DNA of 64,000 nt from the IMG/VR virus record IMGVR_UViG_3300029404_000062; one strand, 5' to 3'. Below, piece after piece: positions 2,674 to 49,771 of the stretch. Source of the stretch: a virus. The position numbers and the translations under genes were made by a program. The number at the start of each line of letters is the position of its first letter. The stretch's first letter is position 1. The notes below the pieces were generated by a model. It was not told where the DNA came from. It did no database searches and saw nothing but the letters and a program-made list of their open reading frames with translations.

Positions 2674-4059
2674 TTAAACAGCGTAACCCTTGTTCTTAAT
2701 GACCTCCACGACCTGAGAGACGTACTTCTGGCAGGTGTCGTGGTCGGGGGCTTCCACCATCACGCGCACAAGCGGCTCAGTGCCGGACTCACGGACGAGG
2801 ATACGGCCGGTATCGCCCAGTGCTTCTGCAACGGCCTTGACGGCCTCCTGCACCGCCGGGTCGTTCTGTGCGGCCTTTTTGTCGGTGACGCGGACATTCT
2901 CCAGAACCTGCGGATAAATCTTCAGGGGCTCAGCCAGCTTGCTCATAGGCATCTTCTTGGCCAGCATAACTTCCATCATCTTGAGACTGGTCAGGATGCC
3001 GTCACCGGTGCTGGCGTACTTAGAGAAGATGATATGACCGCTCTGCTCGCCGCCGATACGGCAGCCGTTCTTAGCCATGTACTCGTAGACGTACTTGTCG
3101 CCCACAGCAGTCTTAGCGTAGCCAATGCCCTGCTCATCGAACGCCTTGTAGAGGCCAAAGTTGGACATAACAGTCGTGACTACGGTGTTGTTCATCAGCT
3201 CGCCGTGCTCCTTCATGTAGCAGCCGTAGATGTACAGAATGTGGTCGCCGGTGATGACATTGCCTTTCTCGTCCACGCACAGGCAGCGGTCAGCATCGCC
3301 GTCGAAGGCAAAGCCGACATCCAGACCGTTCTCCACCACAAACTTCTGCAGACCCTCAATATGGGTAGAGCCAGCATTGTTGTTGATATTCAGGCCATTG
3401 GGCTTGTTGTTGATAACATAGGTATCTGCACCCAGAGCATCGAAAACACTCTTAGCGATATTCCAGCTTGCACCGTTGGCACAGTCCAGACCGACCTTGA
3501 CGCCTTTGAAGGAGTAGATACCCAGAGAAATCAGATAACCCATATAACGGTTGCGACCTGCCACATAGTCCACCGTACAGCCGATGTGCTCGCGATGGGC
3601 AAAGGGCAGCTCCGGCCAGTCCTTATCAAACACATGAAGCTTGCCGTCGATGTAGTCCTCCACCAGCAGCAGAGTCTCTTCGGGCATTTTCTCGCCGTAG
3701 CAGTCGATCAGCTTGATACCGTTATCGTAGTAGGGGTTGTGGCTGGCAGAGATCATGATGCCGCAATCGAAATCGTCCACGCGGGCAATGTAAGCCACAG
3801 ACGGCGTAGTAGTGACGTGCAGCAGGTAGGCGTCTGCGCCGGAAGCGGTCAGGCCAGCGACAAGACTATATTCAAACATATAGGAGCTGCGGCGGGTGTC
3901 CTTGCCGATAACGATACGGGCAGGCTCGCTGTTGCCGTTGCGCTTGCGGAGCATATTATAATACCAGCCAAGGAAGCGGCCAACTTTGTAGGCGTGGTCG
4001 GCAGTCAGATCAATACCAGCTTCACCACGGAAGCCATCAGTTCCAAAGTACTTTCCCAT
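2674..4059 (-). CDS. glmM: Phosphoglucosamine mutase-like phosphohexomutase.
   Basis: N-terminus MGKYFGTDGFRG and active-site loop GIMISASHNPYYDNGIK (phosphoserine motif) are GlmM hallmarks. Product is ~460 aa. In-frame upstream extension of ORF 2674-4122 ignored; start at MGKYF has RBS GAGGTAA. Confidence 0.75.
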   Translation of the reverse strand: MGKYFGTDGFRGEAGIDLTADHAYKVGRFLGWYYNMLRKRNGNSEPARIVIGKDTRRSSYMFEYSLVAGLTASGADAYLLHVTTTPSVAYIARVDDFDCGIMISASHNPYYDNGIKLIDCYGEKMPEETLLLVEDYIDGKLHVFDKDWPELPFAHREHIGCTVDYVAGRNRYMGYLISLGIYSFKGVKVGLDCANGASWNIAKSVFDALGADTYVINNKPNGLNINNNAGSTHIEGLQKFVVENGLDVGFAFDGDADRCLCVDEKGNVITGDHILYIYGCYMKEHGELMNNTVVTTVMSNFGLYKAFDEQGIGYAKTAVGDKYVYEYMAKNGCRIGGEQSGHIIFSKYASTGDGILTSLKMMEVMLAKKMPMSKLAEPLKIYPQVLENVRVTDKKAAQNDPAVQEAVKAVAEALGDTGRILVRESGTEPLVRVMVEAPDHDTCQKYVSQVVEVIKNKGYAV

Positions 4060-4239
4060 TTCTTGATTACCTCGTTCCCAAAAGTGAACTTTTAATAGTG
4101 TATATGCTTTTCCCCGTCGCACGATGCTACCTGCGAAAAAGCATTGTCATCCGCATAGTGCATCGAATCAGGGACACTGTGAATTTAGTATAGCACAATT
4201 CTTGAAGCAAATCACCCTTTCTGCAGATTTTCTCCCTGC

Positions 4240-4292
4240 AGACACACAAAAACACCCTTCCTCTCACGGAAACCCGCAAAAGGAAGGGTGTT
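4240..4292 (-). terminator. Rho-independent terminator downstream of the GAPDH remnant, minus-strand sense.
   Basis: Stem ACACCCTTCC...GGAAGGGTGT followed on the minus strand by a TTTTTGTGTG run. An adjacent second hairpin TCTGCAG...CTGCAGA is present. Confidence 0.55.
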
Positions 4293-4402
4293 AAACTCAT
4301 TATCCTGTTGTCATACCGATCACAGCATATTCACACCAGCAAAGCCGGTATCAGCCGTTATTCAGCACGGCACCTCAAGCACTTTTGAGCGTAGAGCTGT
4401 GA

Positions 4403-4511
4403 TTAGCAGTTCTCAGCGAAGTACTTAATGGTACGGACCATCTGAGAGGTGTAGGAGTTCTCGTTGTCGTACCAAGACACGACCTGAACCTGATAGGTGT
4501 CGTCGTAGCTA
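4403..4511 (-). pseudogene. gap: 3'-terminal remnant (last ~36 codons) of the glyceraldehyde-3-phosphate dehydrogenase gene. The upstream body is absent and replaced by an AT-rich junction.
   Basis: Reverse-complement translation gives RSYDDTYQVQVVSWYDNENSYTSQMVRTIKYFAENC*, the canonical GAPDH C-terminus (VVSWYDNE, YFAE). Reading upstream hits an in-frame TAG at 4512-4514, followed by non-coding AT-rich DNA. Confidence 0.7.
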
Positions 4512-4845
4512 CGCTAAATTTTCACGATTTTTTTGTGATCGTTCATAATTTCGAAACAACAGTTACAGTACCACAGCATACCGTTGTCGTACCAAAACCG
4601 GCTTGTTCGTACCAAAATTATACCACGTTTAGGCGTTATTTTCAAGATCTTTCGCGATTTTGTGTTTTAGAATTATTCTATACATTTTACTTCTTTTTAC
4701 GTGCATATAATTTTCACATAGTATCGTGTACTCCTCGGAGCGTCCGGGACCCGGGGCTTCCGCCGGGGCGTTCGCCCTGCCCAGATGCGCTCCTCAGGGT
4801 GGGTGTGATGAGGGGTTGGATGATTCTGTTCGGTCTCCACGATCT

Positions 4846-5194
4846 CACGCTGAAGAGCATCGTACTGCTGCTGGGTGATCTCACCGTTGGCAAGCTGCTC
4901 ATTAGCCTGCTGTGCGGCAGTCTTCAGCGTTGCCAGCTTTTCCTTGGTGGCTTCAATGGCATCCTTGAGCATCTTTTGCTTCTGGACGACCAGTTCTGTA
5001 TTGGAGGGGTCCAACTTCAGGAGTTTGTTGACATCCTTCAGTCCGGACTGCGTCCCCTTGATTGACTTGTTTACACTTTCCAGTGCTTTGGAGAGCTTTG
5101 TGGTATCGCCGCCGATCTCAACGGTGATGCCCTGGATTCTGGATGCCATTTGCGTAACCACCTCCTCGCAGGCATGAAAAAAGCCCATCTGCAC
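4846..5194 (-). pseudogene. Duplicated 5' fragment of the tape-measure gene (first ~116 codons). ~96% nucleotide identity to 36010-36383, then diverges into an unrelated tail.
   Basis: ORF 4697-5194 translates to MQMGFFHA.EEVV..MASRIQGITVEIGGDTTKLSKALESVNKSIKGTQSGLKDVNKLLKLDPSNTELVVQKQKMLKDAIEATKEKLATLKTAAQQANEQLANGEITQQQYDALQREIVETEQN, identical to the TMP N-terminus at 30429-36383. Similarity extends 16 bp upstream of the ATG (GCATGAAAAAAGCCCATCTGCACG.AGCAGACAGGCTAAA). Confidence 0.8.
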
Positions 5195-5292
5195 GAAGCA
5201 GACAGGCTAAAGGAAAAAATGCTATTAGCTGTGTATCAAAGTCATCCTTTCAGCATACAATATATTTATCAGCAAATTTATCGACTAACCGG

Positions 5293-5321
5293 TTGATATT
5301 TTTGCAAACGTGTGCTATAAT
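5293..5321 (+). promoter_or_regulatory. Near-consensus sigma-A promoter upstream of the antitoxin gene.
   Basis: TTGATA, 17-nt spacer, TATAAT, followed by RBS AAAGGAG 10 nt before the ATG at 5348. Confidence 0.55.
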
Positions 5322-5347
5322 GCAATCAAAGAAAGGAGTTGACGATT

Positions 5348-5677
5348 ATGGCTTCTGTTATGAGTGCTATTACCAACACTGTTCCAATCACCCAATTCAA
5401 CCGTGGTCTTGCCGGAAAAATATTTGAAGATGTCAAGCAGTGCGGTGCCAAGGTTGTTATGAAAAACAATGCTGCCGAATGCGTTCTCATCTCCCCGGAC
5501 GAATATGTCCGTTTAATGGATGAATTAAATGATGCTCGTCTGCTGGCTGTTGCTTCTGAACGTATGGCACACTTTGATCCCACCTCTTTGATTTCTGAGG
5601 AAGAAATGAACCGCCGTCTCGGTGTTACAGAAGACGATCTCGCCGGTTTTGACGAGGTAGAAAGTCATCTTCCTTGA
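5348..5677 (+). CDS. Phd/YefM-family type II antitoxin, orphan: no cognate toxin gene follows.
   Basis: ITQFNRGLAGKIFEDVKQCGAKVVMKNNAAECVLISPDEYVRLMDELNDARLL matches the Phd/YefM antitoxin fold signature. The last ~8 codons run into the ParB-MTase gene fragment. Confidence 0.65.
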   Translation: MASVMSAITNTVPITQFNRGLAGKIFEDVKQCGAKVVMKNNAAECVLISPDEYVRLMDELNDARLLAVASERMAHFDPTSLISEEEMNRRLGVTEDDLAGFDEVESHLP

Positions 5678-5745
5678 CCTCCTTGCTGTGGACCTTGTTG
5701 AACAGGGTCTCAATCTCCGGCGGCTCAAAGGGATCAAAACTTCAG
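5652..5745 (-). pseudogene. ~95-bp internal fragment of a ParB-nuclease/DNA-methyltransferase gene (~88% identical to 60331-60425). Minus-strand translation ...PPEIETLFNKVHSKEVKEDDF.
   Basis: Direct nucleotide alignment of 5652-5745 with 60331-60425 inside CDS 59497-60765. Same orientation as the full gene. Confidence 0.65.
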
Positions 5746-5924
5746 CGTTTTGTATGAGTTCTCGGCATTTTCAGTTCATATAACTGTGAAATACAACCAA
5801 TTTCAGTGCCCTATATAGTGTGCAAAACAGGTTCTTTTCGACATTGCTACGTCAATATGGTTTGTTGAGTAGACATTTCTGGACTAAAAATGCGGCGGCG
5901 TAGTTGCTCGACAGGGGCGCAAAA

Positions 5925-6215
5925 AGCTCACTTATTGCGATATGTCGCTACATATCCGATTTTTGAGCATAAAAAAAGAAGCCGCCGATTATGGACGAAT
6001 CGACCGCTTCAAACTCCGTTTGGAGTAAAATGTTCACTTTTTTCTGGACAAGTGATTATTCTCACTTATATGGATTTTTAGTGATTATACTCACTTATTT
6101 TCGTCTGGATGATTCTATCACCCAGATATAAGGGTGCGTAAAAAGCTCACTTATTTTAAGTGAACATAATCACTTATTTTCAATAGCCGTAAGTGAGCTT
6201 AATCACTTATTTTTC
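5925..6215. repeat. Iteron-like array: at least 9 copies of (A)AGCTCACTTATT(TT) or its complement AATAAGTGA in both orientations within ~290 bp.
   Basis: Copies at approximately 5925, 6031, 6051, 6061, 6081, 6091, 6145, 6157, 6171, 6191 and 6203. The final pair forms inverted copies (TAAGTGAAC / GTAAGTGAGC). Confidence 0.6.
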
Positions 6216-6320
6216 ATGGTATGGGTCCCGCCCAGATGGTTACCTTCCGGCTTGCTAACAACTTAGCCTCCTGGATCGTGACCGTCTGGGCTGCTTTTTT
6301 CCTGCTTCGCCACACGCCCC

Positions 6321-6791
6321 TCACACTGCCCCACTGTCGCGTTTTATCGGCGAGGCCGAGGAACTTTCCGCAGCGGAGGTGTTTTCGCCACACAGGGGCT
6401 TTGTGGGGCTTTCGTCCAGAGCCTTTCCGTTTTCCACAAGGAACGGTGTACTCAGGTCAAAGCTCACAAGTTTTTGACCTGGGATGCTTTTCCCTTCCAT
6501 GCGGTAAGTCCTGCTCTTGTTCCAATGGGCATCCCGGTAGATCATCTGCACCAGTGCCTTGCACTTTATCTCACAGCTATTGCCTTCATTCAGCTTCGGC
6601 GTTTTATGAGAACCCACATCCTCGGCTGCACAATTCTGGACTGCCACTTGATTGGCCCGACGATTGTATAAAAAGCGATAATGTACCGGCCAGCCCAGAG
6701 CTTCCAAGGTGCTGCGGAAGATAGTGATCCTTCCATCCACCGCATTAAAGGTCATCCCCAGCATCCGCTGGTTCCATATTCTTTCGCTCAC
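6321..6791 (-). CDS. Stand-alone paralog of the serine-recombinase C-terminal domain (DUF4368-like), diverged copy.
   Basis: MTFNAVDGRITIFRSTLEALGWPVHYRFLY... aligns with rec1 residues ~415-520 (TIFNGKLRFNTACLKKFETVEYVELLL...) and with ORF 6843-7559. Confidence 0.45.
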   Translation of the reverse strand: MSERIWNQRMLGMTFNAVDGRITIFRSTLEALGWPVHYRFLYNRRANQVAVQNCAAEDVGSHKTPKLNEGNSCEIKCKALVQMIYRDAHWNKSRTYRMEGKSIPGQKLVSFDLSTPFLVENGKALDESPTKPLCGENTSAAESSSASPIKRDSGAV

Positions 6792-6842
6792 GTCTCTCCC
6801 CTCCTCAAAAATGGGCGCACTTTCCCCTTGGTATCGTTATGT

Positions 6843-7559
6843 TCAATCTGTTCCGGCACTCTGCCCGACTTCGGGGACCGCTTTCCCTGTCAGTATTCCC
6901 ATTGACACATATTCGTCCATCTGCTGAACTTCGGATTCCTTCAGATGTTCTTCTACAGGCACGCCAAAAGTACCCGCAATATCATCCGGGTAAAATCCCT
7001 TTCTGCTGCTTGCAGGCTTTTCTTCTGGTGTGTTATTCGGAGAATCGGCGGCACCTTTCTTCCGTCTCTGTCCTTCATGGAAAATCTCAGGCACGAGCAA
7101 ATCAAAGACATACAGGGTTTCACCCTCAAAGGTGATCCTGTATCCCAGCATCTTGTACCGGCATTCGCTATCCCAGCCCATCTCCTTATAGACCAGCTCG
7201 GCAAAAGGCTTGCAGGACATTTTTCTGCTCTTTCGCTTATCCGGTTTTGCAACGCACCAGCGCAGAGCGTCTTTATCATTTTCATCACAGCCGCGCACGA
7301 CAATTCGCTTCAAGTCACTGTTGAACATGACATGAACATAGACCACATCTTCCAGACCAGTAATGCAGGCCGTGTTGAATGTGATGCTGTCCTTGCGGAT
7401 CACGATGGCGGGGTCACGAAGATGAGCAAACAACTCTTTTCGCACGACCTGATATCCATCATACGAAAAGGTACTCTCCAGTTCTTCTGCTCTTGTGTCT
7501 CTATCATTTTGTTCTGCCTGCTCTTCTGATGGCAGAATTACAGTATTTTCCTCATTCAT
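6843..7559 (-). CDS. Stand-alone paralog of the serine-recombinase C-terminal domain (DUF4368-like). Overlaps the stop of recombinase 1 by 8 nt.
   Basis: YDGYQVVRKELFAHLRDPAIVIRKDSITFNTACITGLEDVVYVHVMFNSDLKRIVVRGCDENDKDALRW aligns along its length with the rec1 C-terminus (LTGYEVVRAQYFSTMQNPAMTIFNGKLRFNTACLKKFETVEYVELLLNSVDRCVAIRPCEKSNPNAIRW). Confidence 0.55.
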   Translation of the reverse strand: MNEENTVILPSEEQAEQNDRDTRAEELESTFSYDGYQVVRKELFAHLRDPAIVIRKDSITFNTACITGLEDVVYVHVMFNSDLKRIVVRGCDENDKDALRWCVAKPDKRKSRKMSCKPFAELVYKEMGWDSECRYKMLGYRITFEGETLYVFDLLVPEIFHEGQRRKKGAADSPNNTPEEKPASSRKGFYPDDIAGTFGVPVEEHLKESEVQQMDEYVSMGILTGKAVPEVGQSAGTD

Positions 7560-9393
7560 CTATTTCAGTCCATCCTTCCATTATCTCTTCCGCTTCATGG
7601 AGCAGCGCATTCAGACTATCTGCGGTAAATGTATTCATTTCTTCTATCTCTGTTGCCGGCCGAAGCACATCCCAGTTCCCGGCATAATGTTCCTGCTGTA
7701 AAATACCGACCTGCGCAATACTTGTGATTGGCTGTCCAAAAGTCCCTGCCCATTCCGGTGGGAAAATGTAAATCGTTTTTTTGACCGTTTCGCCCTCTGC
7801 TTCTTCCGAATTTTCCTTTGGCGGCAGAACGATTTCTTCAACCTTGATCATCTCCGGCTCGTCCAGTTCAAAGAGCATCAGCTTATTATCGCCGTCCTCC
7901 ACGAATTGCCCACGGAACCGATAACGCAGATCTTCATCCCACTCCATGATGTCAAAAAGAGTCTTTGCCAGACCACGGCAGCCAAGTGTGCTGGCACACC
8001 AGCGTCCTTCTTTCAGCCGACCCCAGCGGATTGCATTGGGATTGCTCTTTTCACACGGACGGATAGCAACGCAGCGGTCAACGGAATTTAACAACAGCTC
8101 CACATATTCCACAGTTTCAAACTTTTTCAGGCAGGCTGTGTTGAAACGCAGTTTTCCATTGAAAATCGTCATTGCAGGGTTCTGCATCGTTGAGAAATAC
8201 TGCGCCCGAACCACCTCATATCCCGTCAGGTCGAGCCGTTTTTTCACATCTGCCACGACAGAATCGTCCGGCTCCTGCATCACACTTTCGGATGCTTCCC
8301 GGTATTCTTCAGCCGAAAAGCCTGTCCAGTCCTTATCGAAAGGAACATATCCTCGCAGGATTCCATCATCAACCACGCTCAAAACCGGCAGTGGCCGATT
8401 TTTCCTCGTGTAACTTCTGGATGCTCTCAGGTGATTGGCAGCGTTGAATACATCTCTGGACACGATTGCCTCATGGTGGTCCCGCTGCCGATACTGCGTC
8501 CGATCATTGTTGTTTTTCTTGGATTTATGCGTCAAAAAATTTGGCGTGTAAGTCTTTCGAGCCAGTACATCTCCGCAATGACGCTCATTTGCAATGACAC
8601 CCGCCAATGTGCTCGGATTCCATTCCGTGTTCCCCGGCTTCGTCTTCCGCCCGTATTCCGTTAGGAGTTCTGCAATTTCCTTAAGAGAAAATCCGTTCAA
8701 GTACAGGTAATAAATCACCTTTACCGTCTGGGCTTCCTCTGGGTTGACCACCAGGTTGCCTTCCTCGTCCTGATCATATCCCAGCAGAGCCGGAGTCAGG
8801 AACAGACCACGGCTAAAGCGCCGGTCAATGGACCAGTTCATAATGATAGACTTGGAATGGGATTCTTCCTCTGCCACTGATGCCAGAATGGTAAGAATCA
8901 TGCGGCCATTGCTGTCCAACGTGTAAATATTGTCGGCTTCAAATTTCACACCTACAGGTGGTGTAAGGTTTTTCAGTGTTTCAATTACAGATAAGCAGTC
9001 TACGATATTTCGTGCAAAACGGGCAATGGACTTCGTAAGAACAAGGTCGATTTTCCCGGCCTTGCAGTCCTCAATCAACTGCTGCATTCCCTTGCGATGT
9101 TCCAGGGATGTGCCGCTGATGCCCTCGTCATCGTAGATGCCGACAAATTCCCATCCCGGCTGCGCCTTGATGTATTCAGTATAATAATTCTTCTGAAGCT
9201 CATACGAGGAAGTCTGTTCATCATTGTCAGTGGAAACACGGACATAGGCTGCGACACGCCGAATAGAGGTGCTTTCTTCAAGCCCCTCCACAGTTTTTGC
9301 CGGGATGACTTCCAGTTCAGAGGCATCCACGCCTTTATACCGATCTCTGATTTTTTGCTTGCGGTCTACCGCTTCCACTTCACTGCTTATCAT
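7552..9393 (-). CDS. Large serine recombinase 1 (resolvase catalytic domain + recombinase domain + zinc-ribbon + C-terminal DUF4368-like domain).
   Basis: N-terminal AAYVRVSTDNDEQ (catalytic Ser) ...KSIARFARN. 613 aa. Confidence 0.85.
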   Translation of the reverse strand: MISSEVEAVDRKQKIRDRYKGVDASELEVIPAKTVEGLEESTSIRRVAAYVRVSTDNDEQTSSYELQKNYYTEYIKAQPGWEFVGIYDDEGISGTSLEHRKGMQQLIEDCKAGKIDLVLTKSIARFARNIVDCLSVIETLKNLTPPVGVKFEADNIYTLDSNGRMILTILASVAEEESHSKSIIMNWSIDRRFSRGLFLTPALLGYDQDEEGNLVVNPEEAQTVKVIYYLYLNGFSLKEIAELLTEYGRKTKPGNTEWNPSTLAGVIANERHCGDVLARKTYTPNFLTHKSKKNNNDRTQYRQRDHHEAIVSRDVFNAANHLRASRSYTRKNRPLPVLSVVDDGILRGYVPFDKDWTGFSAEEYREASESVMQEPDDSVVADVKKRLDLTGYEVVRAQYFSTMQNPAMTIFNGKLRFNTACLKKFETVEYVELLLNSVDRCVAIRPCEKSNPNAIRWGRLKEGRWCASTLGCRGLAKTLFDIMEWDEDLRYRFRGQFVEDGDNKLMLFELDEPEMIKVEEIVLPPKENSEEAEGETVKKTIYIFPPEWAGTFGQPITSIAQVGILQQEHYAGNWDVLRPATEIEEMNTFTADSLNALLHEAEEIMEGWTEIDE

Positions 9394-9403
9394 GTACTTC
9401 CTC

Positions 9404-10381
9404 TCATTCTTCCGGCTTTATGCTCCAATACCACTGGCGCATCTTCCGATAGCTTCGGATGCCGAGTTCCTTTTTTGTATTTTCTGCGGTCCTGCGGCTG
9501 ATACCCTCGTCGCTCATCCGCATATAGATTTCCCTTGATCTCATGTCTCCCTCAGAAAGCAACTTTTTGATCAAGTATGCGGCTTTCTCGGACTTCGATT
9601 CAAAATCTGGCATTCCCGGATCTGCGGATGGATCTGGTGTAACCTCACACTCCAACCACTCAAATCCTGCTTCTGCTGTTATGGAGAACCGAATCTCACC
9701 GTCTGATGGAGCCAGACTATTTTTGATCTGCCGAACAATACGGATGTCTGTGTTTTCCGGGTCGCGCTCTACTTGCAGGACACTCCGGGCCGCAGCCACG
9801 ACATCAATACTGCCCAGGCTCCGGTACAGACCTTTGGTTCCTTCCTTTTTGTTGAGATGCCCAATCAGCACAATGGCACAATCATATACGGATGCCCACA
9901 TACCCAGCCGGTGCATCAACTTTCTTGCTCTGCCCGCAATCTGAAGGTCAGAATCGCTTCCAAGATATGCCTGAATCGGATCGATGACTACCAGACGCGG
10001 CCGGAATTCTATAATAGCCTGCCGGATGCGTTCATCATCCAGCGTCAGCCCGCTGTATGTATCTTCATTTATAAATGCCACATTCCTGCAATCCGCACCG
10101 CACTTTTCCAGTCTGGGCTTGATGGTATCTGACACACCGTCCTCCGAACACTGGTAGATGACTTTCTTCGGCATCCCGATTGGTTTTCCATCCGGGGTGT
10201 TCCCGCCTTTAGAAAGTTCCGCAATCAGGTTCATCATCATTGTGGATTTGCCATCTCCGGGATCTCCTTGCAGCAATGTGATCTTTCCAACTGCAATGAA
10301 CGGATACCACAGCCAGCGAACAGAAGTCGCCTGTACATCACTATATAATGTAAGAATTCCTGTTTCACCTTTTCCTGCCAT
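9404..10381 (-). CDS. RecA-like P-loop ATPase (AAA_25/RepA-like) with C-terminal DNA-binding-like tail. Co-operonic with recombinase 1.
   Basis: Walker A GDPGDGKS and Walker B-like RLVVIDPIQ. Start at MAGKGETG has RBS GGAAAGGAAAG. Its stop lies 11 nt from the rec1 start. Confidence 0.6.
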   Translation of the reverse strand: MAGKGETGILTLYSDVQATSVRWLWYPFIAVGKITLLQGDPGDGKSTMMMNLIAELSKGGNTPDGKPIGMPKKVIYQCSEDGVSDTIKPRLEKCGADCRNVAFINEDTYSGLTLDDERIRQAIIEFRPRLVVIDPIQAYLGSDSDLQIAGRARKLMHRLGMWASVYDCAIVLIGHLNKKEGTKGLYRSLGSIDVVAAARSVLQVERDPENTDIRIVRQIKNSLAPSDGEIRFSITAEAGFEWLECEVTPDPSADPGMPDFESKSEKAAYLIKKLLSEGDMRSREIYMRMSDEGISRRTAENTKKELGIRSYRKMRQWYWSIKPEE

Positions 10382-10631
10382 CGTCTTTCCTTTCCATTTG
10401 CAGTCTTTTCCTACATTTATATTATAGAGAATGCGTGACGATTTGGCTTCCACCTGTCAGGTGGAGTAACACCAAAAATTCCACTTGTCAGATGGAAAAA
10501 TCGCCTAAGACCACATTACCGATGGAGGTGCGGACTATTGCGGTCTTAGAATCTCCTATATTCAGTTGCTATGTGCATCTTCCTGCGAGATAATCGAACT
10601 GCCTTATGCGGGTATCATAAGGAGGAAACAC

Positions 10632-10973
10632 ATGGCAATCGATTATATCGCACTTGGACAGCGCATTAGCGATTTTAGAAACAAACATAATTTTTCACAG
10701 GAGGAGCTTGCTTTCCGCAGTGGCGTTGGAAACAAGCATATCAGCAACATTGAACTTGGAAAAGGAAAACCGAGTCTGGAATCTCTCGTCCAAATTGCAA
10801 ACGTTCTTAATGTATCCGCAGATGACCTGCTAGTGGACAGCCTTACACACTCTACTTCCACTGCTGACACGGAGATTCACCGTCTGCTCTTAGACTGTAA
10901 CGCAATCGAACAGGAGATTCTCACCCGGATGGTAAAGGAGATGAAAGCAATCCTCTACGGTTTGGGAATCTGA
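10632..10973 (+). CDS. XRE-family helix-turn-helix transcriptional regulator.
   Basis: FSQEELAFRSGVGNKHISNIELGKGKPSLESLVQIANVLNVSADDLL is a classic HTH_3 motif. Only plus-strand gene in the island. Confidence 0.7.
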   Translation: MAIDYIALGQRISDFRNKHNFSQEELAFRSGVGNKHISNIELGKGKPSLESLVQIANVLNVSADDLLVDSLTHSTSTADTEIHRLLLDCNAIEQEILTRMVKEMKAILYGLGI

Positions 10974-11134
10974 TTTTGTAACCCGTTGACCACATAACAA
11001 AAAAGCCCGCATAAGCCACAGCTGCACTTCGGCTCAAACCGGGGTGCTGTCTGTGGTTCATGCGGGTCAGGGCAAAAAAAGGAGCCCGCCAGCGTACCAT
11101 GTAGATTCTACACAGTGCGCCAGCGGGCAAAATT

Positions 11135-11653
11135 TCACTTCAATAGATCAGACAGACTGTATTCTCCCTTCGGAATGTTTGCAGTTCTCCGATATTCCTT
11201 TATTGCACTTATCAATGTTTGTGGATTACTGAAATAGTCCTTTACAAAATCATATGACTTCACATCATGCATACGCAGATCCGTCTTACAAAATTCGCTC
11301 GGTTTCTTCCCAGAACGCTTAAACTTGTCATAAGCTCCTTCACTATGGATGATCAGCATTTCTATTTCTGGTGCTGTAATGATATTTATGACATCAACCT
11401 TATGTTCGTAAGCCTTGCTAAGACGAAAATCTTCTCTGCGAGAATCCAAAATCCGAATCACGGAAATTTGGTCATCAAAGCCTTTACGCAAGTAACGCTC
11501 CTCAAATCGCTTTGCACTTCGGCAGCGGATAACACTTTCGTCCAGCATTTCTTCCCTTGAAAAAATCAAAAGGTCATTATCCACAAGAATATCAATAATT
11601 GCGGACTCTGCAGAGCCCTCGCATATACACGCTTTATATTTTGCTAATTTCAT
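11135..11653 (-). CDS. Small DUF4276/RloB-like (TOPRIM-related) protein, partner of the AAA_21 ATPase.
   Basis: N-terminus KACICEGSAESAIIDILV resembles the xLVEGxTEExFV TOPRIM-like start of DUF4276 proteins. 172 aa, low GC (~38%). Separated from the upstream ATPase gene by 13 nt. Confidence 0.45.
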   Translation of the reverse strand: MKLAKYKACICEGSAESAIIDILVDNDLLIFSREEMLDESVIRCRSAKRFEERYLRKGFDDQISVIRILDSRREDFRLSKAYEHKVDVINIITAPEIEMLIIHSEGAYDKFKRSGKKPSEFCKTDLRMHDVKSYDFVKDYFSNPQTLISAIKEYRRTANIPKGEYSLSDLLK

Positions 11654-11665
11654 TTCGCCGCCTCC

Positions 11666-12817
11666 TTAGTGTATTGAAGCAGCCAAATTTTTCTTCAAGC
11701 GCATATATGCCTCATATGCAGGAGTTGTTCCCTCAAGAAAACCGCTTTGATAGGCATCACTCTTTTTAATGTCATTGCGCTTTAAAATATTGCTCAAGTT
11801 ATCAGCTGTGATTCCGTTACGGTTTCTAACGATATAGATTCCATCATTTCGGTCATATTCATCCAGCAATTCTGGATAGTGCGTTGTAAAAATCAGTGTT
11901 CCACCGTTTCTGTTCAAACGGCTATCCATAAAGAAGCGTACTAAAGTCGTGACAATTTCTTTATTAAAATGGTTTTCGATTTCATCCACCAGAAGGTATC
12001 CACCGGACTGAAGAACCTCTTTTACCATTGAAAAAGTAATGATACCCTTGATTGTGCCGGAAGACAGATACTGTTCAAGATCCACTGCATTGTTCAAAGT
12101 GATCTCATCTTCACCCTTAAATTTCAGGTGAATAAAGGTTTTTCCATCTGTTTCTTCAAAACACAATTTTTCAATGGTCGGATCAAGAAAAGCTATCACT
12201 TCGAGTGGGATGTCATCTGTAAATGGAAGGACATTCACATTTGTATAAGAAAGCAGGCTGAATACTTCAACCTTATCATTTGTCTTTTTATTATGAGCAA
12301 TAATCAAGCTAACATCGTCCGGAAGGAACGCTTCATCATTATTCCGAACTGCAGCCGGCTCTATTCCGGTAAAATCCGTCAGATATTTTTTCGACTTTAC
12401 GCTGGCAATCGGTTTCTCCCACATTTTTTCGGCCAGAATAGAGTAATTATAATCTCCCGCTTTTGCTTTCTTTGCCACAATCACAGTCTCCAGGCAGCAG
12501 ACGTATTTGCGTTCATCATAAAAATATGTGCGAATCGTTGCCTTCTCAGTTCCTCCAAGAATGCTCTTTGCTTCCACATGATTAATGGGCTCATTTTTAA
12601 CAATGCTCAAGGCCAGATTGATAACTTTCAGCACGGATGTTTTTCCAGACGCATTGATGCCAATAAAAGCACAAGCGGAATGAAGGTAGTAATTATCCTT
12701 CATCCTATACAGGCGATCTTTATCATCCTCACTTACACGCTGTTGGGTATAAAAGCAGATATCAAGATCTTCCTTAAACAGTGGAAGTCCTTGTGCCGTG
12801 ATACGAAGTATTTTCAT
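11666..12817 (-). CDS. AAA_21/ABC-type ATPase (OLD/AbiL-like ATPase component).
   Basis: Walker A GINASGKTS, Walker B LLVDEIENHF, followed by TTHYPELL (H-loop). 383 aa, low GC. Confidence 0.65.
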   Translation of the reverse strand: MKILRITAQGLPLFKEDLDICFYTQQRVSEDDKDRLYRMKDNYYLHSACAFIGINASGKTSVLKVINLALSIVKNEPINHVEAKSILGGTEKATIRTYFYDERKYVCCLETVIVAKKAKAGDYNYSILAEKMWEKPIASVKSKKYLTDFTGIEPAAVRNNDEAFLPDDVSLIIAHNKKTNDKVEVFSLLSYTNVNVLPFTDDIPLEVIAFLDPTIEKLCFEETDGKTFIHLKFKGEDEITLNNAVDLEQYLSSGTIKGIITFSMVKEVLQSGGYLLVDEIENHFNKEIVTTLVRFFMDSRLNRNGGTLIFTTHYPELLDEYDRNDGIYIVRNRNGITADNLSNILKRNDIKKSDAYQSGFLEGTTPAYEAYMRLKKNLAASIH

Positions 12818-12914
12818 TTTTCAATCCCCCTTCTAAAAACGGCTTTTCCGTTTTTATTTTTCACTATTCTTATTATACCCCACCTAAAAGAAATTATCAA
12901 CGATTTTTCCGTTT

Positions 12915-13316
12915 TTATTTTCTTCTATATCTCAAACTCCGGTAAGCATCCTGTATGAAGCCCACAAACTCAGGACTCATCGTCTCCACGATATGTTTGC
13001 CGTCCACCCCTCGCAGCATCTCTACGGCGATCTGCGCCACATCGCTCTTGTCCTGTTCCATCCGTCTCAAAGCATCTGCCACCGCCTCATCAATGAACGC
13101 AGCGAGCTTTGCTCCTTCAATAATGCTTTGTACCGGCATCGGTGCGCCATCTTCACCCGCCAGCCGGATGACTTTTGGTTCTATGATCTCCCCGATCTTA
13201 CGCAGTGCTTCATCCTCCGGCATCTGCCGCAGATACCCTTTCATGGTGCTTACGACCATTATCTCCAGCGGTGTTGTCCCGTAATCCTCAACGGAAAGCC
13301 ACGATAACCTTTTCAC
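12915..13316 (-). CDS. Hypothetical protein (133 aa).
   Basis: ORF only; no recognisable motifs. Confidence 0.3.
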   Translation of the reverse strand: MKRLSWLSVEDYGTTPLEIMVVSTMKGYLRQMPEDEALRKIGEIIEPKVIRLAGEDGAPMPVQSIIEGAKLAAFIDEAVADALRRMEQDKSDVAQIAVEMLRGVDGKHIVETMSPEFVGFIQDAYRSLRYRRK

Positions 13317-13410
13317 ACTATCCTCTCCCTGCTATGTGTATTTCTGTGTACCCACAACATATAACAGGACTCTGCACATAGCAACCAAATTTTTCCGGAT
13401 AAACGGAAAC

Positions 13411-13460
13411 AAAAAAGGCCCTGCCAGATGCAGTTTTGAGCCACATCCAGCAGGGTCGTA
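13411..13460. terminator. Bidirectional rho-independent terminator downstream of recombinase 2.
   Basis: Stem GCCCTGCCAGATG...CATCCAGCAGGGTC with T-runs on both flanks (TATTTTTT on plus, TTTTTTGTTTCC on minus). Confidence 0.55.
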
Positions 13461-13518
13461 TTTTTTCTCACATTATGCTGTTCGTCTTATCGTTGGTTTC
13501 TTCAAATAGTGTTTTTTC

Positions 13519-15819
13519 TCACACAGCTTCTCCACGTTCCCGTTTTGCAGCGGTCGTCAGATACCGGCGATACTGGATGCTGAAGCCATGCACTTTGTAC
13601 GGTGCATCCACATACACCACCGTACCGTTGAGGTCGCTCCGCTTGAATCCCATGAAGCTGGTCAATGTTCTGCGATTGCCCTTCGTCGTCAGCGTTACAC
13701 CGAAGTTCGTCTTGTAGGTGATGATATCGCCCTGCACCACTCCACTCTCGATGAAGGCGCAGTAGATACCTTTCTCAAAATGAAGCATATCTGGGGATTC
13801 GGCGATTCGCTCTGGTGTCAGCTTCAGCTTGCCCTTGGTCACAGCGGACACTCGCCCTTCAATGACCTTACCGTCCACATCTCTCAGAAGACTTCCCTGC
13901 ACATCCAGTCCGTTGACCTTCAGCGGCATTCCGGCCGCGTTGGTATCCGGCAGTTCTTTCAGGCAGGCAAGGAAATATTCAAAGTTCTTCTTCATGATCG
14001 TCAGCACACCCTGCTCTGCCTCGATGGTCTGCTGCTCATGGCGAAGCGTCTTGATGCGCTCCCGCAGGTCATTTACCAGCTCTGTGTAGATTTGGGCCTC
14101 CGAGCCTTCCTCTGCCGAAATCTCATAAAAGGATGCTCCGATGCTGTTCGGGGTCAGCCCGTTCCGGATGTCCGTGTCGATGTCATCGATTGTCACCTCG
14201 CCGTTGGAAAGGGCATCCTTCAGTTCCGCATTATCTTCCAGAGCGGCTTCCCGCAGGGCTGCCACCTGATGGCTGACTGCATCCTGCAGGCGTTCTTCCA
14301 GTTCTTCGATCTGAGAATTCACCGTCTGAAGCCGCTGTACCGAGATGCTGTTGTTCTTTGCCTGCTTCATCGCCTGTTCAAAAGCGTTGTCGAACAGGGT
14401 CACGATCATGGATGCATCGCCGTGCTGTTCGTAATCCCGCTTCATGCTGTAAAGCAGTTCCATGAAGCTCTGCTCCAAAGCGCATTCATAATAGGTTTCA
14501 GAAGGACACCGTTCATTGGCGGCTTTCTTTTCCGCATCCGACATACATCCCTTTTTGCTGCGACAGTACATTTTCTGGTCGGGGCTGCCATTCTTGGGCG
14601 GTGCGTCCTGCCGTTCTCCTGCCTTCCGCTTGCACTTCCAGACAGGATAGGAATAGCTGTACTTTTCGAGGAATTCACCCGTATCCTCCCCTGTCGCTTT
14701 CAGGCTCCTCTCATCCGTGTAGCCATTTGCCACGCCAGTGTACGTCACACGAAAGAATCCTTCACCACAGGGCTTTCCGGCATCCGGTCCATGCTCAAGG
14801 ATTGCCCCACAGCGCAGATTTCCAAAAGGTGAGCCTTTGATGGTGCGGGTCTTTTTCTTTCCGGGACCTTTCGTCATATCCGTCCGGGGCTTCTCGAACA
14901 AAAGCGTCTGCACCTTATCCCAAGTCACCCGGTCGATGATGCCTACATGGTGGTTCTTGACATAGTACCGGGGTGCTTCACCCTTATTGATGCTGGAACG
15001 GTGTGTCAGGAAATCCTTCGTGATGGTCTTCTGCATCTCCACATCGCCTACATATTTCTCATTCCGCAGAACGATCAGGATGGAGCTTGCCCGCCATTTC
15101 TTTCCGTTCACAGTCGTCTTTCCCAGCTCGTTCAATTCTTCTGCGATTTTATTAGCGGTCTGCCCCTTCACGAAGCGTTCAAAGATGTACCGCACCACCT
15201 GCGCCTGTTCCGGTACGATCACCCACTCCTGATTCGGTCCCAGATCATACCCCAGCATCCGCTTCAGATTGATATGCGGAACGCCCGCCTGGAACTTCTT
15301 CTGGATACTCCAGCGGATGTTGTCCGAAATGGAACGGCTCTCATCCTGTGCCAAAGCGGAAAGGATGGTCAGGATCAGCTCGCCTTTGGCATCCAGCGTA
15401 TCGATATTTTCCTTCTCGAAGTACACACCCACAGGCGGCTTCAATTGCCGAAGCTCACGGGTACAGGTCAGGGAATCGATCGTGTTTCGTGCGAATCGGG
15501 AAATGGACTTCGTGACAATGTAGTCCAACTTGCCATCCATCGCGTCCTTCATCATGCGGTTGAATTCCTCACGGTGCTCTCTGTTCGTGCCGGATTTAGC
15601 TTCATCGGCATAGATGCCTGCAAAGATCCATCCAGGTTTTCCTGTAATCAGGTTCTTGTAGAATGCTTTCTGGGTCGTGTAGGATGTCTGCTGGCTTTCA
15701 TCGCCAGTGGACACGCGGCAGTAAGCCGCCACACGGATGTTCGTCTGCTGTTTCAGCTGTCCGCCATTCTGCACTGATCGCACACTGGCAGGGATCACGT
15801 CTACTTTTCTCTGTGCCAT
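13519..15819 (-). CDS. Large serine recombinase 2 (766 aa).
   Basis: AAYCRVSTGDESQ...KSISRFARN resolvase domain; long recombinase/zinc-ribbon/coiled-coil C-terminus. Confidence 0.85.
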   Translation of the reverse strand: MAQRKVDVIPASVRSVQNGGQLKQQTNIRVAAYCRVSTGDESQQTSYTTQKAFYKNLITGKPGWIFAGIYADEAKSGTNREHREEFNRMMKDAMDGKLDYIVTKSISRFARNTIDSLTCTRELRQLKPPVGVYFEKENIDTLDAKGELILTILSALAQDESRSISDNIRWSIQKKFQAGVPHINLKRMLGYDLGPNQEWVIVPEQAQVVRYIFERFVKGQTANKIAEELNELGKTTVNGKKWRASSILIVLRNEKYVGDVEMQKTITKDFLTHRSSINKGEAPRYYVKNHHVGIIDRVTWDKVQTLLFEKPRTDMTKGPGKKKTRTIKGSPFGNLRCGAILEHGPDAGKPCGEGFFRVTYTGVANGYTDERSLKATGEDTGEFLEKYSYSYPVWKCKRKAGERQDAPPKNGSPDQKMYCRSKKGCMSDAEKKAANERCPSETYYECALEQSFMELLYSMKRDYEQHGDASMIVTLFDNAFEQAMKQAKNNSISVQRLQTVNSQIEELEERLQDAVSHQVAALREAALEDNAELKDALSNGEVTIDDIDTDIRNGLTPNSIGASFYEISAEEGSEAQIYTELVNDLRERIKTLRHEQQTIEAEQGVLTIMKKNFEYFLACLKELPDTNAAGMPLKVNGLDVQGSLLRDVDGKVIEGRVSAVTKGKLKLTPERIAESPDMLHFEKGIYCAFIESGVVQGDIITYKTNFGVTLTTKGNRRTLTSFMGFKRSDLNGTVVYVDAPYKVHGFSIQYRRYLTTAAKRERGEAV

Positions 15820-15861
15820 AATTGCTCCTTTCCGCCGATCCTCTTCCGACCGGCTCTCGCT

Positions 15862-18210
15862 TTACTTTCTCCGAATCTGCTTCACATACTGCTTTCTCTG
15901 GCTTCCATTCCGCATCACATGACCATCAAAGTAGCTGGCAGTGTAGCGGTAATCCTCGATGTTGGTATCCATCTCAACTTCCGTTTTGGTGTCATCGAAC
16001 CAGTGGATCGTGTACTTCAGCGGAGAATGGATAGTCATCGAAAGGATAAATGCCTTGCAGTGTTCCTGCGTCATACCGTTCAGAAATTCTATCATTCCTT
16101 CCCGTCCTGCCGGAAGCTGTTTCATCCATTCGAGGGCTTTTTCTCGGCGGTCATAATCCTGTTCCAACTCTTCCCAGTATTCTTCCAGATAGTCAAGCCG
16201 TTCTGTCAGTTTCTGTTCCGATTCTTCGTCTGCTGCTACCGCCTGTTCCAGCTTTTCAATCAGCTGTCTCTTTTCCTCAATGGTGGCTGCATCGATCATC
16301 TCATCACCCAGAAGTTCCAGTCTGGTTTGCATAACATCCACCTGACTCTTCAGCAGACGGATTTTCTTATTCGTGCTCTCGATACTGAGATGGGCCGCCG
16401 AAATCTGCTTTTTATAAAAGGCACGGTCACGTTCCATGAAGTCCAGCTTCTGTATGCTTTCCAGCCGCGACAACATCTGGCTCACAAAGCTGTCCGCTTC
16501 CGGGGTGAAATTTTCATACTGCTCTTTGAACCGTCCACTCATGATGTCTGCAATCTTCACATCATCGTGGATCGGTTTGACCGTCAGCCGGAACCGTTCC
16601 AGAACACCTTTTCGGAATACGCGGATGATCTGTTCCTCATACACCTTTTCTGCATGACAGATCCTCTTTCCATTATTCTGATTGCTGGAAGGGCAGAACC
16701 AAATCGTGTTGCTCCCGCTTGAGTTTCTTACATTATAAAATCGTCCGCATTCTCCACAGATGAGTCTTCCGCTAAAAGCCTTCGGTACATTTAATTTTCC
16801 CAGCCCCCTGCCGTAGTAAGAACTGTTCATTATTCGTATCTCTTGTACTTTTGCAAACAATTCTTCATCGATAATTGCCGGGTGATGGTCTCTGACCAGA
16901 TATTGCGGAACTTCTCCATTATTTATCCGTCTTTCATGGTTTAAGTAGTCCGTAGTATAGCTTTTTTGAATCCGGACTGCCCCTGTGTAACGCTCCGCAC
17001 GAATAATCTGCCCGATCTGCCGTCCAGTCCAGCCATCTTCCAACACACTGTTGAGCTGTCCCTTTTTTGAATTTTTCTTTCGGGCTTCCACTGCCTTTGT
17101 TCGCGGTGGTGGAATTCTATCAAAATTCAAGCTCCTGGCAATCTCTGTATATGCCTTACCTTCCAGAACTTCATGGAAGATTCGCCTGACCACCGCCGCT
17201 TCCTCTTCAACGATTTCAATGTCCTTATACTTATATCCACTTTCAAGGGTAATGACCTTTCCATTGTAGCGGTACCCATAAATGACCGCATTCCTGACTT
17301 CTCCCTTTGGAAAGCGCATCTTATTTCCAAGATTGATATTGCCGGAAATACTCCGACTCTCTTCCTGGGCGATTGCCGCCAGCGTAGTAAGGATAAAATC
17401 ATTCGTCGGGTCAGCGGTGTCCAGATTTTCCTTTTCAAAAAGGATCGTCACGCCACTGTCATGCAGGGCATCCAATGCTTCCATGAAATCTGCCGTGTTC
17501 CGTGCAAAACGGGAAATGGACTTGCACACAATGCGGTCGATTTTTCCCTCTTTGCAGTGCCGGAGCAGTCTGCGGAATCCGGTTCTATTTTCTCTGGATG
17601 TACCGGAGATGCCGTAATCTGAGTACACACCAACTGCATTCCATTCCGGATTGCTTTCAATCAGCTGGTTAAAATAGCGTTCCTGTGTTTCGTAGGAATT
17701 TTCCTGATCACTCGAATCTGTAGAAACGCGGATGTAAGCAGCCACCTTCAGACAGCCATTTTTCTTTTTCGTTGCACGGAACGTAGCCGTGGAGATGAAT
17801 CGGTTGTCCTGTTCCTGTGGTTCTTCATCTGCATGAAAAAGCTGTGAGAACTCACTCTGCATCCCGCTCTGTACTTTTTCTGCGATGTCCGGCTGTGCCA
17901 TGACTTTCCTTGCCGCCAGCGCATTCTGAATCAGTGCGGTAATGCCGGGGTCTACTACTTCTTTTGGTTTTTGTTGAGTAGACCTGTCCTGTTGCGTGTC
18001 AGTCGAGGGTAAAAAGGAAGCCGTGGCAGCTTCCGTACTCTGACGGACTCCTGCCACAGCTTCTTTCGGTTTAAGGGCTGCTGCCAACAGAGCTGAAACA
18101 TCCACGGCAGATGCCGTTTCTCTCTTTTTCTGTTTCTGCTGGACGGTATTTTTGACCGTTGCTTTCTGTAAACTTGCCAGAAAATCAGTTCCTGCACTCA
18201 TAATCTCCAC
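15862..18210 (-). CDS. Large serine recombinase 3 (782 aa) with a ~140-aa N-terminal extension.
   Basis: VAAYIRVSTDSSDQ...KSISRFARN; CGECGRFY zinc-ribbon. Confidence 0.85.
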   Translation of the reverse strand: MEIMSAGTDFLASLQKATVKNTVQQKQKKRETASAVDVSALLAAALKPKEAVAGVRQSTEAATASFLPSTDTQQDRSTQQKPKEVVDPGITALIQNALAARKVMAQPDIAEKVQSGMQSEFSQLFHADEEPQEQDNRFISTATFRATKKKNGCLKVAAYIRVSTDSSDQENSYETQERYFNQLIESNPEWNAVGVYSDYGISGTSRENRTGFRRLLRHCKEGKIDRIVCKSISRFARNTADFMEALDALHDSGVTILFEKENLDTADPTNDFILTTLAAIAQEESRSISGNINLGNKMRFPKGEVRNAVIYGYRYNGKVITLESGYKYKDIEIVEEEAAVVRRIFHEVLEGKAYTEIARSLNFDRIPPPRTKAVEARKKNSKKGQLNSVLEDGWTGRQIGQIIRAERYTGAVRIQKSYTTDYLNHERRINNGEVPQYLVRDHHPAIIDEELFAKVQEIRIMNSSYYGRGLGKLNVPKAFSGRLICGECGRFYNVRNSSGSNTIWFCPSSNQNNGKRICHAEKVYEEQIIRVFRKGVLERFRLTVKPIHDDVKIADIMSGRFKEQYENFTPEADSFVSQMLSRLESIQKLDFMERDRAFYKKQISAAHLSIESTNKKIRLLKSQVDVMQTRLELLGDEMIDAATIEEKRQLIEKLEQAVAADEESEQKLTERLDYLEEYWEELEQDYDRREKALEWMKQLPAGREGMIEFLNGMTQEHCKAFILSMTIHSPLKYTIHWFDDTKTEVEMDTNIEDYRYTASYFDGHVMRNGSQRKQYVKQIRRK

Positions 18211-18367
18211 TCCTTTCTGCCCGTTTCTTCCTTTGGGCAGTCACATATTCCCTCTGTTTCGTGATATTATCAAGTTTTATCGGCGCAGAAAGACGGAGAA
18301 ATACCGCTCCGATTATTGTTCTATCTGCACGATATGTACCCCACCCTTGGCGGGTGGGGAGGTCTTA

Positions 18368-48004: not shown

Positions 48005-48090
48005 TTCCGTAGGGCTTTTCCCTTCGTTGTGACTGTATATTACCGTCACTGCCCGGACATAGCAAGCGGCTATGCTGCACGATCATACAC
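48005..48090 (-). repeat. Promoter/leader cassette copy 1 (conserved ~80 bp: upstream box GATCGTGCAGTATAGCCGCTTGCTAT, -35 TTGCTA, 17-nt spacer, -10 TAATAT/TATAT, leader ...ACCGAAAGGG..., RBS).
   Basis: Aligns with copies at 48488, 49150, 49772, 50438, 50762, 54898, 56328. Confidence 0.6.
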
Positions 48091-48177
48091 ACCCCTTTTT
48101 GTCGGATTTATGTGTATTTACACGCCGGAGAAATCCGCCACTACGAGCAAAAGCCCCCGAAGGAGCTCTGCCTTTTT

Positions 48178-48462
48178 TCAGTGTGCGTTCCTGATGCACC
48201 ACTCGATCGCGTGACCGGCATCCGTGTAGGTCTCATCGGAAATCTTCAGAAGCTCCAATCGGCACTCAATCGGTGACCAGCCTTCCTCCGGGTCTTCCAC
48301 AAAGCCGTATACCGCTCCCTCCAGCATGCCGTTCCAGTTCATCTGGGCAACCAGAACCCTGTCACCGAACTGCATGATGCTGTCGTAGCAAGGTCTGAGT
48401 CGGTCGTAGAAGCTCTCGATGCTGATGTTGTTTTCTGGGAAATTAATCAAATGCTTTTTCAT
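48178..48462 (-). CDS. Hypothetical small protein (94 aa).
   Basis: ORF behind cassette copy 2. Confidence 0.4.
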   Translation of the reverse strand: MKKHLINFPENNISIESFYDRLRPCYDSIMQFGDRVLVAQMNWNGMLEGAVYGFVEDPEEGWSPIECRLELLKISDETYTDAGHAIEWCIRNAH

Positions 48463-48487
48463 GGTAAAATCCTCCGTGTTTTCGTTT

Positions 48488-48572
48488 TTCCCTTGGGGCT
48501 TTCCCCTTTCGGTATGTGCATATTACCGTCAGGTGCAAAGGATAGCAAGCGGCTATACTGCACGATCATCTT
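48488..48572 (-). repeat. Promoter/leader cassette copy 2.
   Basis: CCTTGGGGCTTTCCCCTTTCGGTATGTGCATATTACCGTCAGGTGCAAAGGATAGCAAGCGGCTATACTGCACGATCAT. Confidence 0.6.
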
Positions 48573-48597
48573 CCCAGAATACCGGGCAGAATGTACA

Positions 48598-49133: not shown

Positions 49134-49149
49134 GGTGGTTTCCTCCGTT

Positions 49150-49747: not shown

Positions 49748-49771
49748 TGTCGTATCCTCCGTTTTTGTTGT

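Follow-up and report, generated by a model that had tools for sequence, protein, structure and literature searches.

A serine recombinase and two free-standing paralogues of its C-terminal domain recur as a unit in temperate phages of gut Clostridia

Described serine recombinase systems and the rec1 locus

Canonical large serine recombinases include the phiC31, Bxb1, A118 and SPbeta integrases and CcrA/B. Here we analysed a recombinase gene, rec1, and the two small open reading frames (ORFs) that follow it, ORF238 and ORF156, in a 64,000-nucleotide (nt) stretch of viral DNA (IMG/VR record IMGVR_UViG_3300029404_000062; referred to in full length as 'the window'), which encodes two further serine recombinases, rec2 and rec3. 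The three genes of interest lie on the minus strand at 7552–9393 (rec1, 613 amino acids (aa)), 6843–7559 (ORF238) and 6321–6791 (ORF156). In canonical serine integrases a zinc ribbon reads the outer parts of the attachment (att) sites, while contacts made by a coiled coil, which are remodelled by recombination directionality factors (RDFs), set directionality (see, for example, PMC3783163 and PMC5499577). In its Resolvase and Recombinase domains, and in its position at a prophage end as judged by an att-like dyad, rec1 is like other large serine recombinases. It differs from them in having neither a zinc ribbon nor the coiled coil embedded in it, in carrying an unrelated beta-rich domain, and in its acidity.

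Two other groups of recombinases invite comparison. DUF4368 is a marker of multi-targeting serine recombinases of the TndX/TnpX type (Durrant et al. 2022, PMC10083194). These are large serine recombinases of Clostridia with a non-canonical C-terminal region, and in this they resemble rec1, although rec1 has no DUF4368. Integrative and conjugative elements (ICEs) of Firmicutes, including streptococci, carry serine-integrase triplets at the element end; some members lack a zinc ribbon, and additional coding sequences that lie between these triplets and their target gene are also on record (Ambroset et al. 2016, PMC4701971). The window likewise has three co-oriented serine recombinases at one end. 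In contrast to the ICEs, the host element here is a siphovirus-like prophage, rec1 is split from rec2 and rec3 by cargo and regulatory genes, and there are free-standing domain paralogues, which are undescribed in the ICE triplets.

Accessory proteins offer a second point of reference. RDFs such as Bxb1 gp47, phiC31 gp3 and SPbeta SprB are small integrase-binding proteins that alter what is recombined. The known ones are unrelated in sequence to their own integrases, act on the coiled coil or zinc domain that rec1 does not have, and are usually expressed separately, whereas ORF238 appears to be translationally coupled to rec1. The nearest conceptual parallel comes from transposition: the Mu repressor shares a DNA-binding domain with the MuA transposase (domain I-alpha) and binds the same enhancer/operator region, and the Tn5 inhibitor protein, too, is a regulator with the same DNA-binding domain as the transposase of its element. 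As in the trio described here, a non-catalytic domain of the recombinase stands free in the same element. However, Mu and Tn5 use DDE transposases, and here two paralogues (~25% identity) sit in one serine-recombinase operon. Neither the domain nor the trio turned up as already described in our literature searches.

A domain shared by rec1, ORF238 and ORF156

The original prediction held that the C-terminal domain of rec1 recurs in the two ORFs directly downstream, and both BLAST and profile searches bore this out. Residues 367–567 of rec1 aligned with residues 11–213 of ORF238 (27% identity, E = 3e-27), and residues 430–516 aligned with ORF156 over ~87 residues (23% identity, E = 9e-7); ORF238 and ORF156 also matched each other (24% identity, E = 7e-10). 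We then built a joint hidden Markov model (HMM) from an alignment of the three families with 31 members. Among 641 six-frame ORFs of the window this profile picked out exactly rec1, ORF238 and ORF156 (E = 1e-107, 5e-95 and 8e-60), which confirms their similarity at the domain level. It found no match in rec2 or rec3 (E > 0.09), from which the domain had been reported absent. The HMM envelope on rec1 covers residues 353–612.

The predicted domain length of ~200 aa holds for the span of the BLAST alignment but not for the folded part, since in this span a folded core of ~130 aa is joined by a linker of low complexity and by a short tail motif that is conserved. The core common to the three families has an invariant N, C, C, W, Y and G, and lies at residues ~385–520 of rec1 (7834–8241, minus strand), ~34–162 of ORF238 (7074–7460) and ~14–118 of ORF156 (6438–6752). 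The tail motif, [FY]P.[DE]W..[TQ]FG.P, is common to rec1 (IFPPEWAGTFGQPI, 7726–7767, minus strand) and ORF238 (FYPDDIAGTFGVPV) only and is also present in homologues from Candidatus (Ca.) Heliusvirales phages. ORF238 thus consists of an acidic N-terminus, the core and the tail motif, while ORF156, which is basic, has the core only.

ORF238 and the C-terminal region of rec1 were modelled independently with AlphaFold, and both models showed two consecutive beta-beta-alpha-beta-beta units (predicted local distance difference test (pLDDT) scores of 75–87, and 75–80 in the rec1 core) with disordered flanks. The best fold match was the DNA-binding protein MraZ, followed by plant B3 DNA-binding domains. 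Comparison of our alignment with E. coli MraZ and B. subtilis AbrB by hhalign, for which the sequences of these two proteins were entered by hand, gave probabilities below 1%. We therefore treat an MraZ-like DNA-binding barrel as a lead that the models suggest and not as a result. ORF238 and ORF156 had no match in Pfam, NCBIfam or PHROGs, and a profile search of PDB sequences came back empty. The domain had been labelled 'DUF4368-like', a name that has to be dropped: DUF4368 (PF14287) matched none of rec1, ORF238 and ORF156 at E <= 0.1 and none of the 31 family members at E <= 10, and when these 31 sequences were scanned against Pfam at lenient thresholds, no domain was matched consistently. 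The family is large: ORF238 alone has 3,911 clusters at 90% identity, and among 1.84 billion representatives the joint profile matched 2,583 clusters at 50% identity.

Judged by its sequence, rec1 itself is a catalytically intact serine recombinase of the large type in which an uncharacterised C-terminal domain replaces the zinc ribbon and coiled coil. Pfam searches identified the catalytic Resolvase domain (PF00239, residues 47–185, E = 1.3e-28), with the motif YVRVSTD that includes the VST serine, and the Recombinase domain (PF07508, residues 218–325, E = 8.3e-22). The zinc ribbon (PF13408) was matched by rec3 (E = 7e-10) and not by rec1, and no Cys-cluster motif was found in residues 330–385 of rec1. 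In the AlphaFold model of residues 340–613 the core is rich in beta strands, and there is no long coiled coil. Whole-protein isoelectric points (pI) are 5.0 for rec1 versus 8.6 for rec2 and 7.7 for rec3. The linker and tail of rec1 are rich in Asp and Glu, an acidity that is unusual for a DNA recombinase.

Next, we asked how widely the three genes are kept together. The 8-nt overlap between the rec1 stop and the ORF238 start (ATGAATGA, 7552–7559, minus strand), from which co-translation had been proposed, is real and has the arrangement of translational coupling. A start/stop overlap is kept across loci at 8, 53, 23 or 1 nt. A genome scan limited to one genome per species yielded 17 loci from at least 8 genera (hosts: Blautia, Faecalibacterium, Ruminococcus, Clostridium fessum, Lachnoclostridium, Mediterraneibacter and others); in these genome loci of relatives the rec1/ORF238 overlap measures 8 or 53 nt. 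The gene for a P-loop ATPase with an AAA_25 domain lies directly upstream of rec1 (9404–10453, minus strand), and the order AAA_25-rec1-ORF238-ORF156 was kept in all loci of the scan that carry the region, even where identity to the window fell to 65% (rec1 and ORF238) and 35–40% (ORF156). All three genes of the trio were intact in nearly all 17 loci. IMG/VR contributed 56 further loci with a unit of this type, and a recombinase-medium-small order was found in 53 of 59 additional IMG/VR loci of the Heliusvirales type, nearly all of the others being cut by contig ends. Altogether, more than 130 loci have the fixed order rec1-ORF238-ORF156, constant ORF lengths and, where the contig allows it to be seen, near-universal intactness.

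Both small genes are under purifying selection. Median ratios of nonsynonymous to synonymous substitution rates (dN/dS), calculated pairwise by the Nei-Gojobori method (NG86), were 0.067 for ORF238 and 0.206 for ORF156, as compared to 0.047 for rec1 and 0.05 for the rec1 C-terminal core.

Among deposited phage genomes, tblastn found the family almost only in complete genomes labelled as Ca. Heliusvirales (17 records, two places in each), a lineage of the human gut that is reported to be both ancient and widespread. The Heliusvirales paper mentions neither recombinases nor integrases. In three annotated genomes (L080–L082; hosts Blautia, Oscillospirales and Agathobacter) the operon opens with a repressor-like helix-turn-helix (HTH) gene, homologous to the Xre-type HTH gene of the window, which precedes a domain-bearing recombinase of 622–632 aa (43–45% identical to rec1), a paralogue of 233–261 aa (36–42% identical to ORF238) and a paralogue of 129–133 aa, whose relation to ORF156 is at the profile level (HMM E ~1e-16). 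The reading frames of this trio overlap too. AAA_25 is missing from the Heliusvirales version, and two convergent canonical serine recombinases follow the operon. After the trio this operon also encodes a conserved protein of 316–338 aa and a DUF6551 (ParB-like) protein, neither of which has a homologue beside the trio in the window.

Because the trio recurs in such distant loci, the duplications must be old, with both small genes retained since. On these alignments and gene orders, ORF238 and ORF156 are best described as old duplications of the rec1 C-terminal domain. With rec1 they make up an operon of three genes that is ancient and conserved and that belongs to the lysogeny/integration region in a lineage of temperate gut-Clostridia phages, comprising Ca. 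Heliusvirales and relatives.

Possible roles of the free-standing domains

On balance we lean towards the view that ORF238 and ORF156 are non-catalytic partner subunits, co-expressed with rec1 and assembling with it. ORF238 would be translationally coupled to rec1, and both small proteins would be made from the same message, allowing a complex of rec1, ORF238 and ORF156 of fixed stoichiometry. The free domains could then sit on DNA at sites akin to the targets of the C-terminal domain of rec1 or, alternatively, pair with that domain itself. In either case the partners might supply the site selection and synapsis control that are otherwise given by the zinc ribbon and coiled coil. The suggestion that these ORFs are trans-acting accessory subunits derived from the recombinase fits the conservation data, which do not demonstrate it; a directionality-like role, also suggested, is disfavoured by co-translation. 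Since they are co-translated with rec1, a constitutive partner is favoured over a separately switched directionality factor. We put forward only tentatively a more elaborate version, in which rec1 and two obligatory non-catalytic subunits form a heteromeric machine that jointly reads the att site and accessory repeats and sets directionality, as a hallmark of phages of the Heliusvirales type.

Candidate target sites lie just downstream of the trio. A long hairpin with 29-nt arms (6230–6291) directly follows ORF156, is kept in related loci and is probably the operon terminator. Beyond it is a repeat array (5914–6214) with seven TCACTTAT cores within 290 bp, all on one strand. Four of the seven are halves of AAGTGA-N6-TCACTT palindromes (6050–6068, 6080–6097, 6157–6175 and 6190–6208), and there are three half-sites of the form AAGCTCACTTATT (5924–5936, 6030–6042 and 6143–6155). 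The array also contains a terminator-like hairpin (5982–6004), and a search of it for a sigma-70-like promoter found none. In relatives at ~65% identity the equivalent position is taken by ATGATA-type palindromes and AAATGWACATTT half-sites, whereas one close subfamily, in which AAA_25 is kept at 90% identity, has lost the palindromes and retains a single half-site. The sequence of the array thus co-varies with the protein subfamily, which suggests that some protein of the unit reads it.

The array lies close to the end of the mobile unit. DNA similarity among relatives ends 320–540 bp after ORF156, and elements that are 99% identical (in Blautia faecis, Faecalibacterium intestinale and an Emergencia metagenome-assembled genome) part ways within or just after the counterpart of a dyad-symmetric att-like site, ATGTCTACTCAA-CAAACCATA-TTGACGTAGCAATG (5842–5876, minus strand). 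The flanks past this site differ by locus and often retain a TTGACGT-like half-site, as an att junction predicts. From these comparisons we take the att-like site to mark the right end of the mobile unit, which therefore places the array 40–350 bp inside the end.

Several observations weigh against rec1, ORF238 and ORF156 acting together in this way. That the three proteins make contact, that they bind DNA and that the array plays any part are all things that we infer. The core of ORF156 is basic (pI 9.5), but those of rec1 and ORF238 are not (pI 6.6 and 7.8), and the tails that flank them are acidic. No comparable repeat array was found within 5 kb of the Heliusvirales operons, and the close subfamily mentioned above has only its single half-site; for these two reasons the array cannot be an obligatory target. 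This also led us to reject the array as a universal companion of the domain. The finding of a triplicated domain directly before an iteron array had been singled out as unusual; the array is real, but the distant homologues without one weaken its significance. In addition, the HTH protein or the AAA_25 ATPase of the unit could equally be the reader of the array, and any of the three recombinases may be the one that uses the att-like site.

Some of these observations could mean that ORF238, ORF156 or both are regulators of transcription or immunity that, as free copies of the DNA-binding domain of the recombinase, bind the array or other operators and compete with rec1, much as in the case of the Mu repressor and MuA; this is a possibility that we consider rather unlikely. 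An array of 18–20-bp palindromes and half-sites does look operator-like and on phage circularisation would adjoin the other prophage end, yet it contains no promoter-like site. ORF156 is small and basic, and in Heliusvirales the first gene of the operon, which lies in the lysogeny region, is a repressor-like HTH gene; but these distant homologues retain both small genes without an array, and the tight coupling to rec1 suggests a stoichiometric partnership instead.

We would give a similarly low chance to the array having nothing to do with the domain. It would then be an iteron origin served by AAA_25, or a set of operators for the Xre-type HTH protein, while the paralogues would act through protein contacts or as inhibitors or decoys of rec1. 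The array and AAA_25 co-occur in the family of the window and are both missing in Heliusvirales, which agrees with an origin; however, the close subfamily with AAA_25 at 90% identity has no palindromes, and although AAA_25 is the nearest candidate for an iteron initiator, it lies 3 kb from the array, is not a known initiator and has not been demonstrated to be one here. Palindromes of 18–20 bp would fit a dimeric HTH protein, but the array is 4 kb from the promoter region of the HTH gene itself. The non-basic cores of rec1 and ORF238 and their acidic tails also fit a domain that does not bind the array.

Finally, the idea that ORF238 and ORF156 are decaying pseudogene relics of further recombinases that lost their catalytic halves could appeal to their tandem position downstream of a recombinase, to their alignment with its C-terminal part only and to the truncated and chimeric derivatives of rec1, ORF238 and ORF156 in one Faecalibacterium lineage, but it is refuted by intact ORFs of constant length and fixed order in more than 130 loci, dN/dS values of 0.07 and 0.21 (overlapping constraint cannot account for these in a non-overlapping ORF of 700 nt), a Heliusvirales trio at 36–45% identity in which ORF238 has orthologues at 36–42% and ORF156 at the profile level, conserved start/stop overlaps, and the lack of any catalytic-domain remnant upstream of ORF238 or ORF156 in the window.

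Surrounding genes, derivatives and significance

The prophage in the window is siphovirus-like, lies on the minus strand and extends from ~18.3 kb to the end of the window. Its genes after ~18.3 kb encode an endolysin (18368–19834, minus strand), tail proteins, a tape measure protein of 1984 aa, the major head protein, the portal and the terminase, so that the recombinase block forms the lysis-proximal end of the prophage. The terminase region shares 73% DNA identity with 'Evtepia phage NatCom' records.

Between the endolysin gene and rec1 are rec3 (15862–18210), rec2 (13519–15819), a small conserved ORF (12915–13316) and two cargo genes (11135–12817), all on the minus strand, then a gene for an Xre-type HTH protein of 135 aa on the plus strand (10566–10973) and the AAA_25 gene. 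The three recombinase genes all have the same orientation. In close relatives, HTH, AAA_25, rec1, ORF238 and ORF156 form an invariant five-gene unit. The left edge of this unit is sharp, ~158 bp past the HTH stop (~11128 in the window), and just outside it is a variable slot where the cargo differs or is missing in other loci. The cargo in the window consists of a 383-aa AAA_21 ATPase that matches AbiLi (E = 2.5e-31) and an unmatched 172-aa partner, a probable AbiL-like anti-phage defence pair aboard the prophage. On some IMG/VR contigs (L029–L031) HTH-AAA_25 occurs again, whole or in part, a few kb beyond ORF156 on its downstream side, suggesting tandem accretion of related units.

The long GTG-start N-terminal extension of rec3 (17903–18210) is probably not translated: an ATG near 17903 has AAGGAAAG ahead of it as a good Shine-Dalgarno sequence, and within the long ORF the catalytic domain does not start before residue 156. 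Upstream of this probable true start is a second dyad site related to that at the right end of the unit, GGTCTACTCAACAAAAACC...GTAGTAGACC (17949–17985, minus strand), in direct orientation with 5842–5876. Copies of the GTCTACTCAAC motif, upstream of rec3 and at the right end of the element, bracket a segment of 12.1 kb (5858–17985) that might excise on its own. Many relatives (loci L004–L071) have one or two more GTCTACTCAAC copies between ORF156 and the array.

Outside the right end of the element, 4822–5121 is a 300-bp, 97% copy of the 5' part of the tape-measure gene (36011–36310), and 5661–5730 is a 70-bp, 91% copy of part of the ParB-methylase gene (60325–60394); the latter adjoins a Phd/YefM-like antitoxin gene (5339–5677). 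This flank looks like a mosaic of remnants from a related prophage. In the early region of the prophage (48010–54965) there are six intergenic copies of a repeat of ~57–77 nt with the core TGTATATTACCGTCAC ... AGCAAGCGGCTA, which may be repeated regulatory or promoter elements. An Rfam scan of 4000–19000 of the window returned no match.

In many database proteins, dozens overall, rec1, ORF238 or ORF156 is fused in frame to a foreign partner or has an internal deletion (for example at loci L011 and L018–L023 and in proteins P0025, P0037, P0038, P0040, P0127, P0128, P0135, P0222, P0372, P0375, P0377 and others). Fusion partners include GlmS, Ugd, ANT, an epimerase, Alg14, topoisomerase, TraG, tape measure and tail endopeptidase, and junctions cluster at rec1 residues 247–249, 285–290, 405 and 428–431 and ORF238 residues 1–6 and 45–47. 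The left partner ended in TAT in all five junctions read at the DNA level, and the right partner was preceded by YAT in the hot-spot sequences checked. For two of the internal deletions both parental sites are known, and there the matched segments share 3 nt. The chimera contigs that we examined belong to a Faecalibacterium lineage in which a rec1 remnant lies with intact ORF238 and ORF156 in a polysaccharide locus and adjoins a PDDEXK_2 (Rpn/YhgA-like) gene. One of the fusions was present in each of two independent samples, and a single truncation recurs on 263 contigs. We conclude that the chimeras are real, inherited variants derived from the trio, and our conclusion on the intact trio is unaffected by them. 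Recombinase action at pseudo-sites and nuclease-promoted illegitimate recombination are candidate mechanisms for their origin.

The in-frame fusions of ORF238 to the GlmS, Ugd and ANT genes, all at one nucleotide, had raised the idea that the junction between the rec1 stop and the ORF238 start is the phage attachment site attP. They come from one rearranged remnant lineage, and we rejected the idea as the general arrangement because rec1 and ORF238 stay adjacent in megabase-scale chromosomal contigs.

Serine integrases are major tools for genome engineering, and how they choose sites and set direction is understood only in the type with a zinc ribbon and coiled coil. The family described here is a large and abundant group that departs from this type, with ~2,600 clusters at 50% identity and thousands of contigs from gut metagenomes. 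Its C-terminal domain is a different, unnamed one, always accompanied by two free-standing copies. Small genes now annotated as 'hypothetical' or, wrongly, as 'integrase' become recognisable as parts of a conserved module, and the domain merits a family definition of its own even without a mechanism. If ORF238 and ORF156 are true partner subunits, they would represent an undescribed mode of control of serine recombination and a target for work on the integration and excision of prevalent gut prophages. A heteromeric machine, if it exists, would characterise an order of temperate phages that is very widespread in the human gut.

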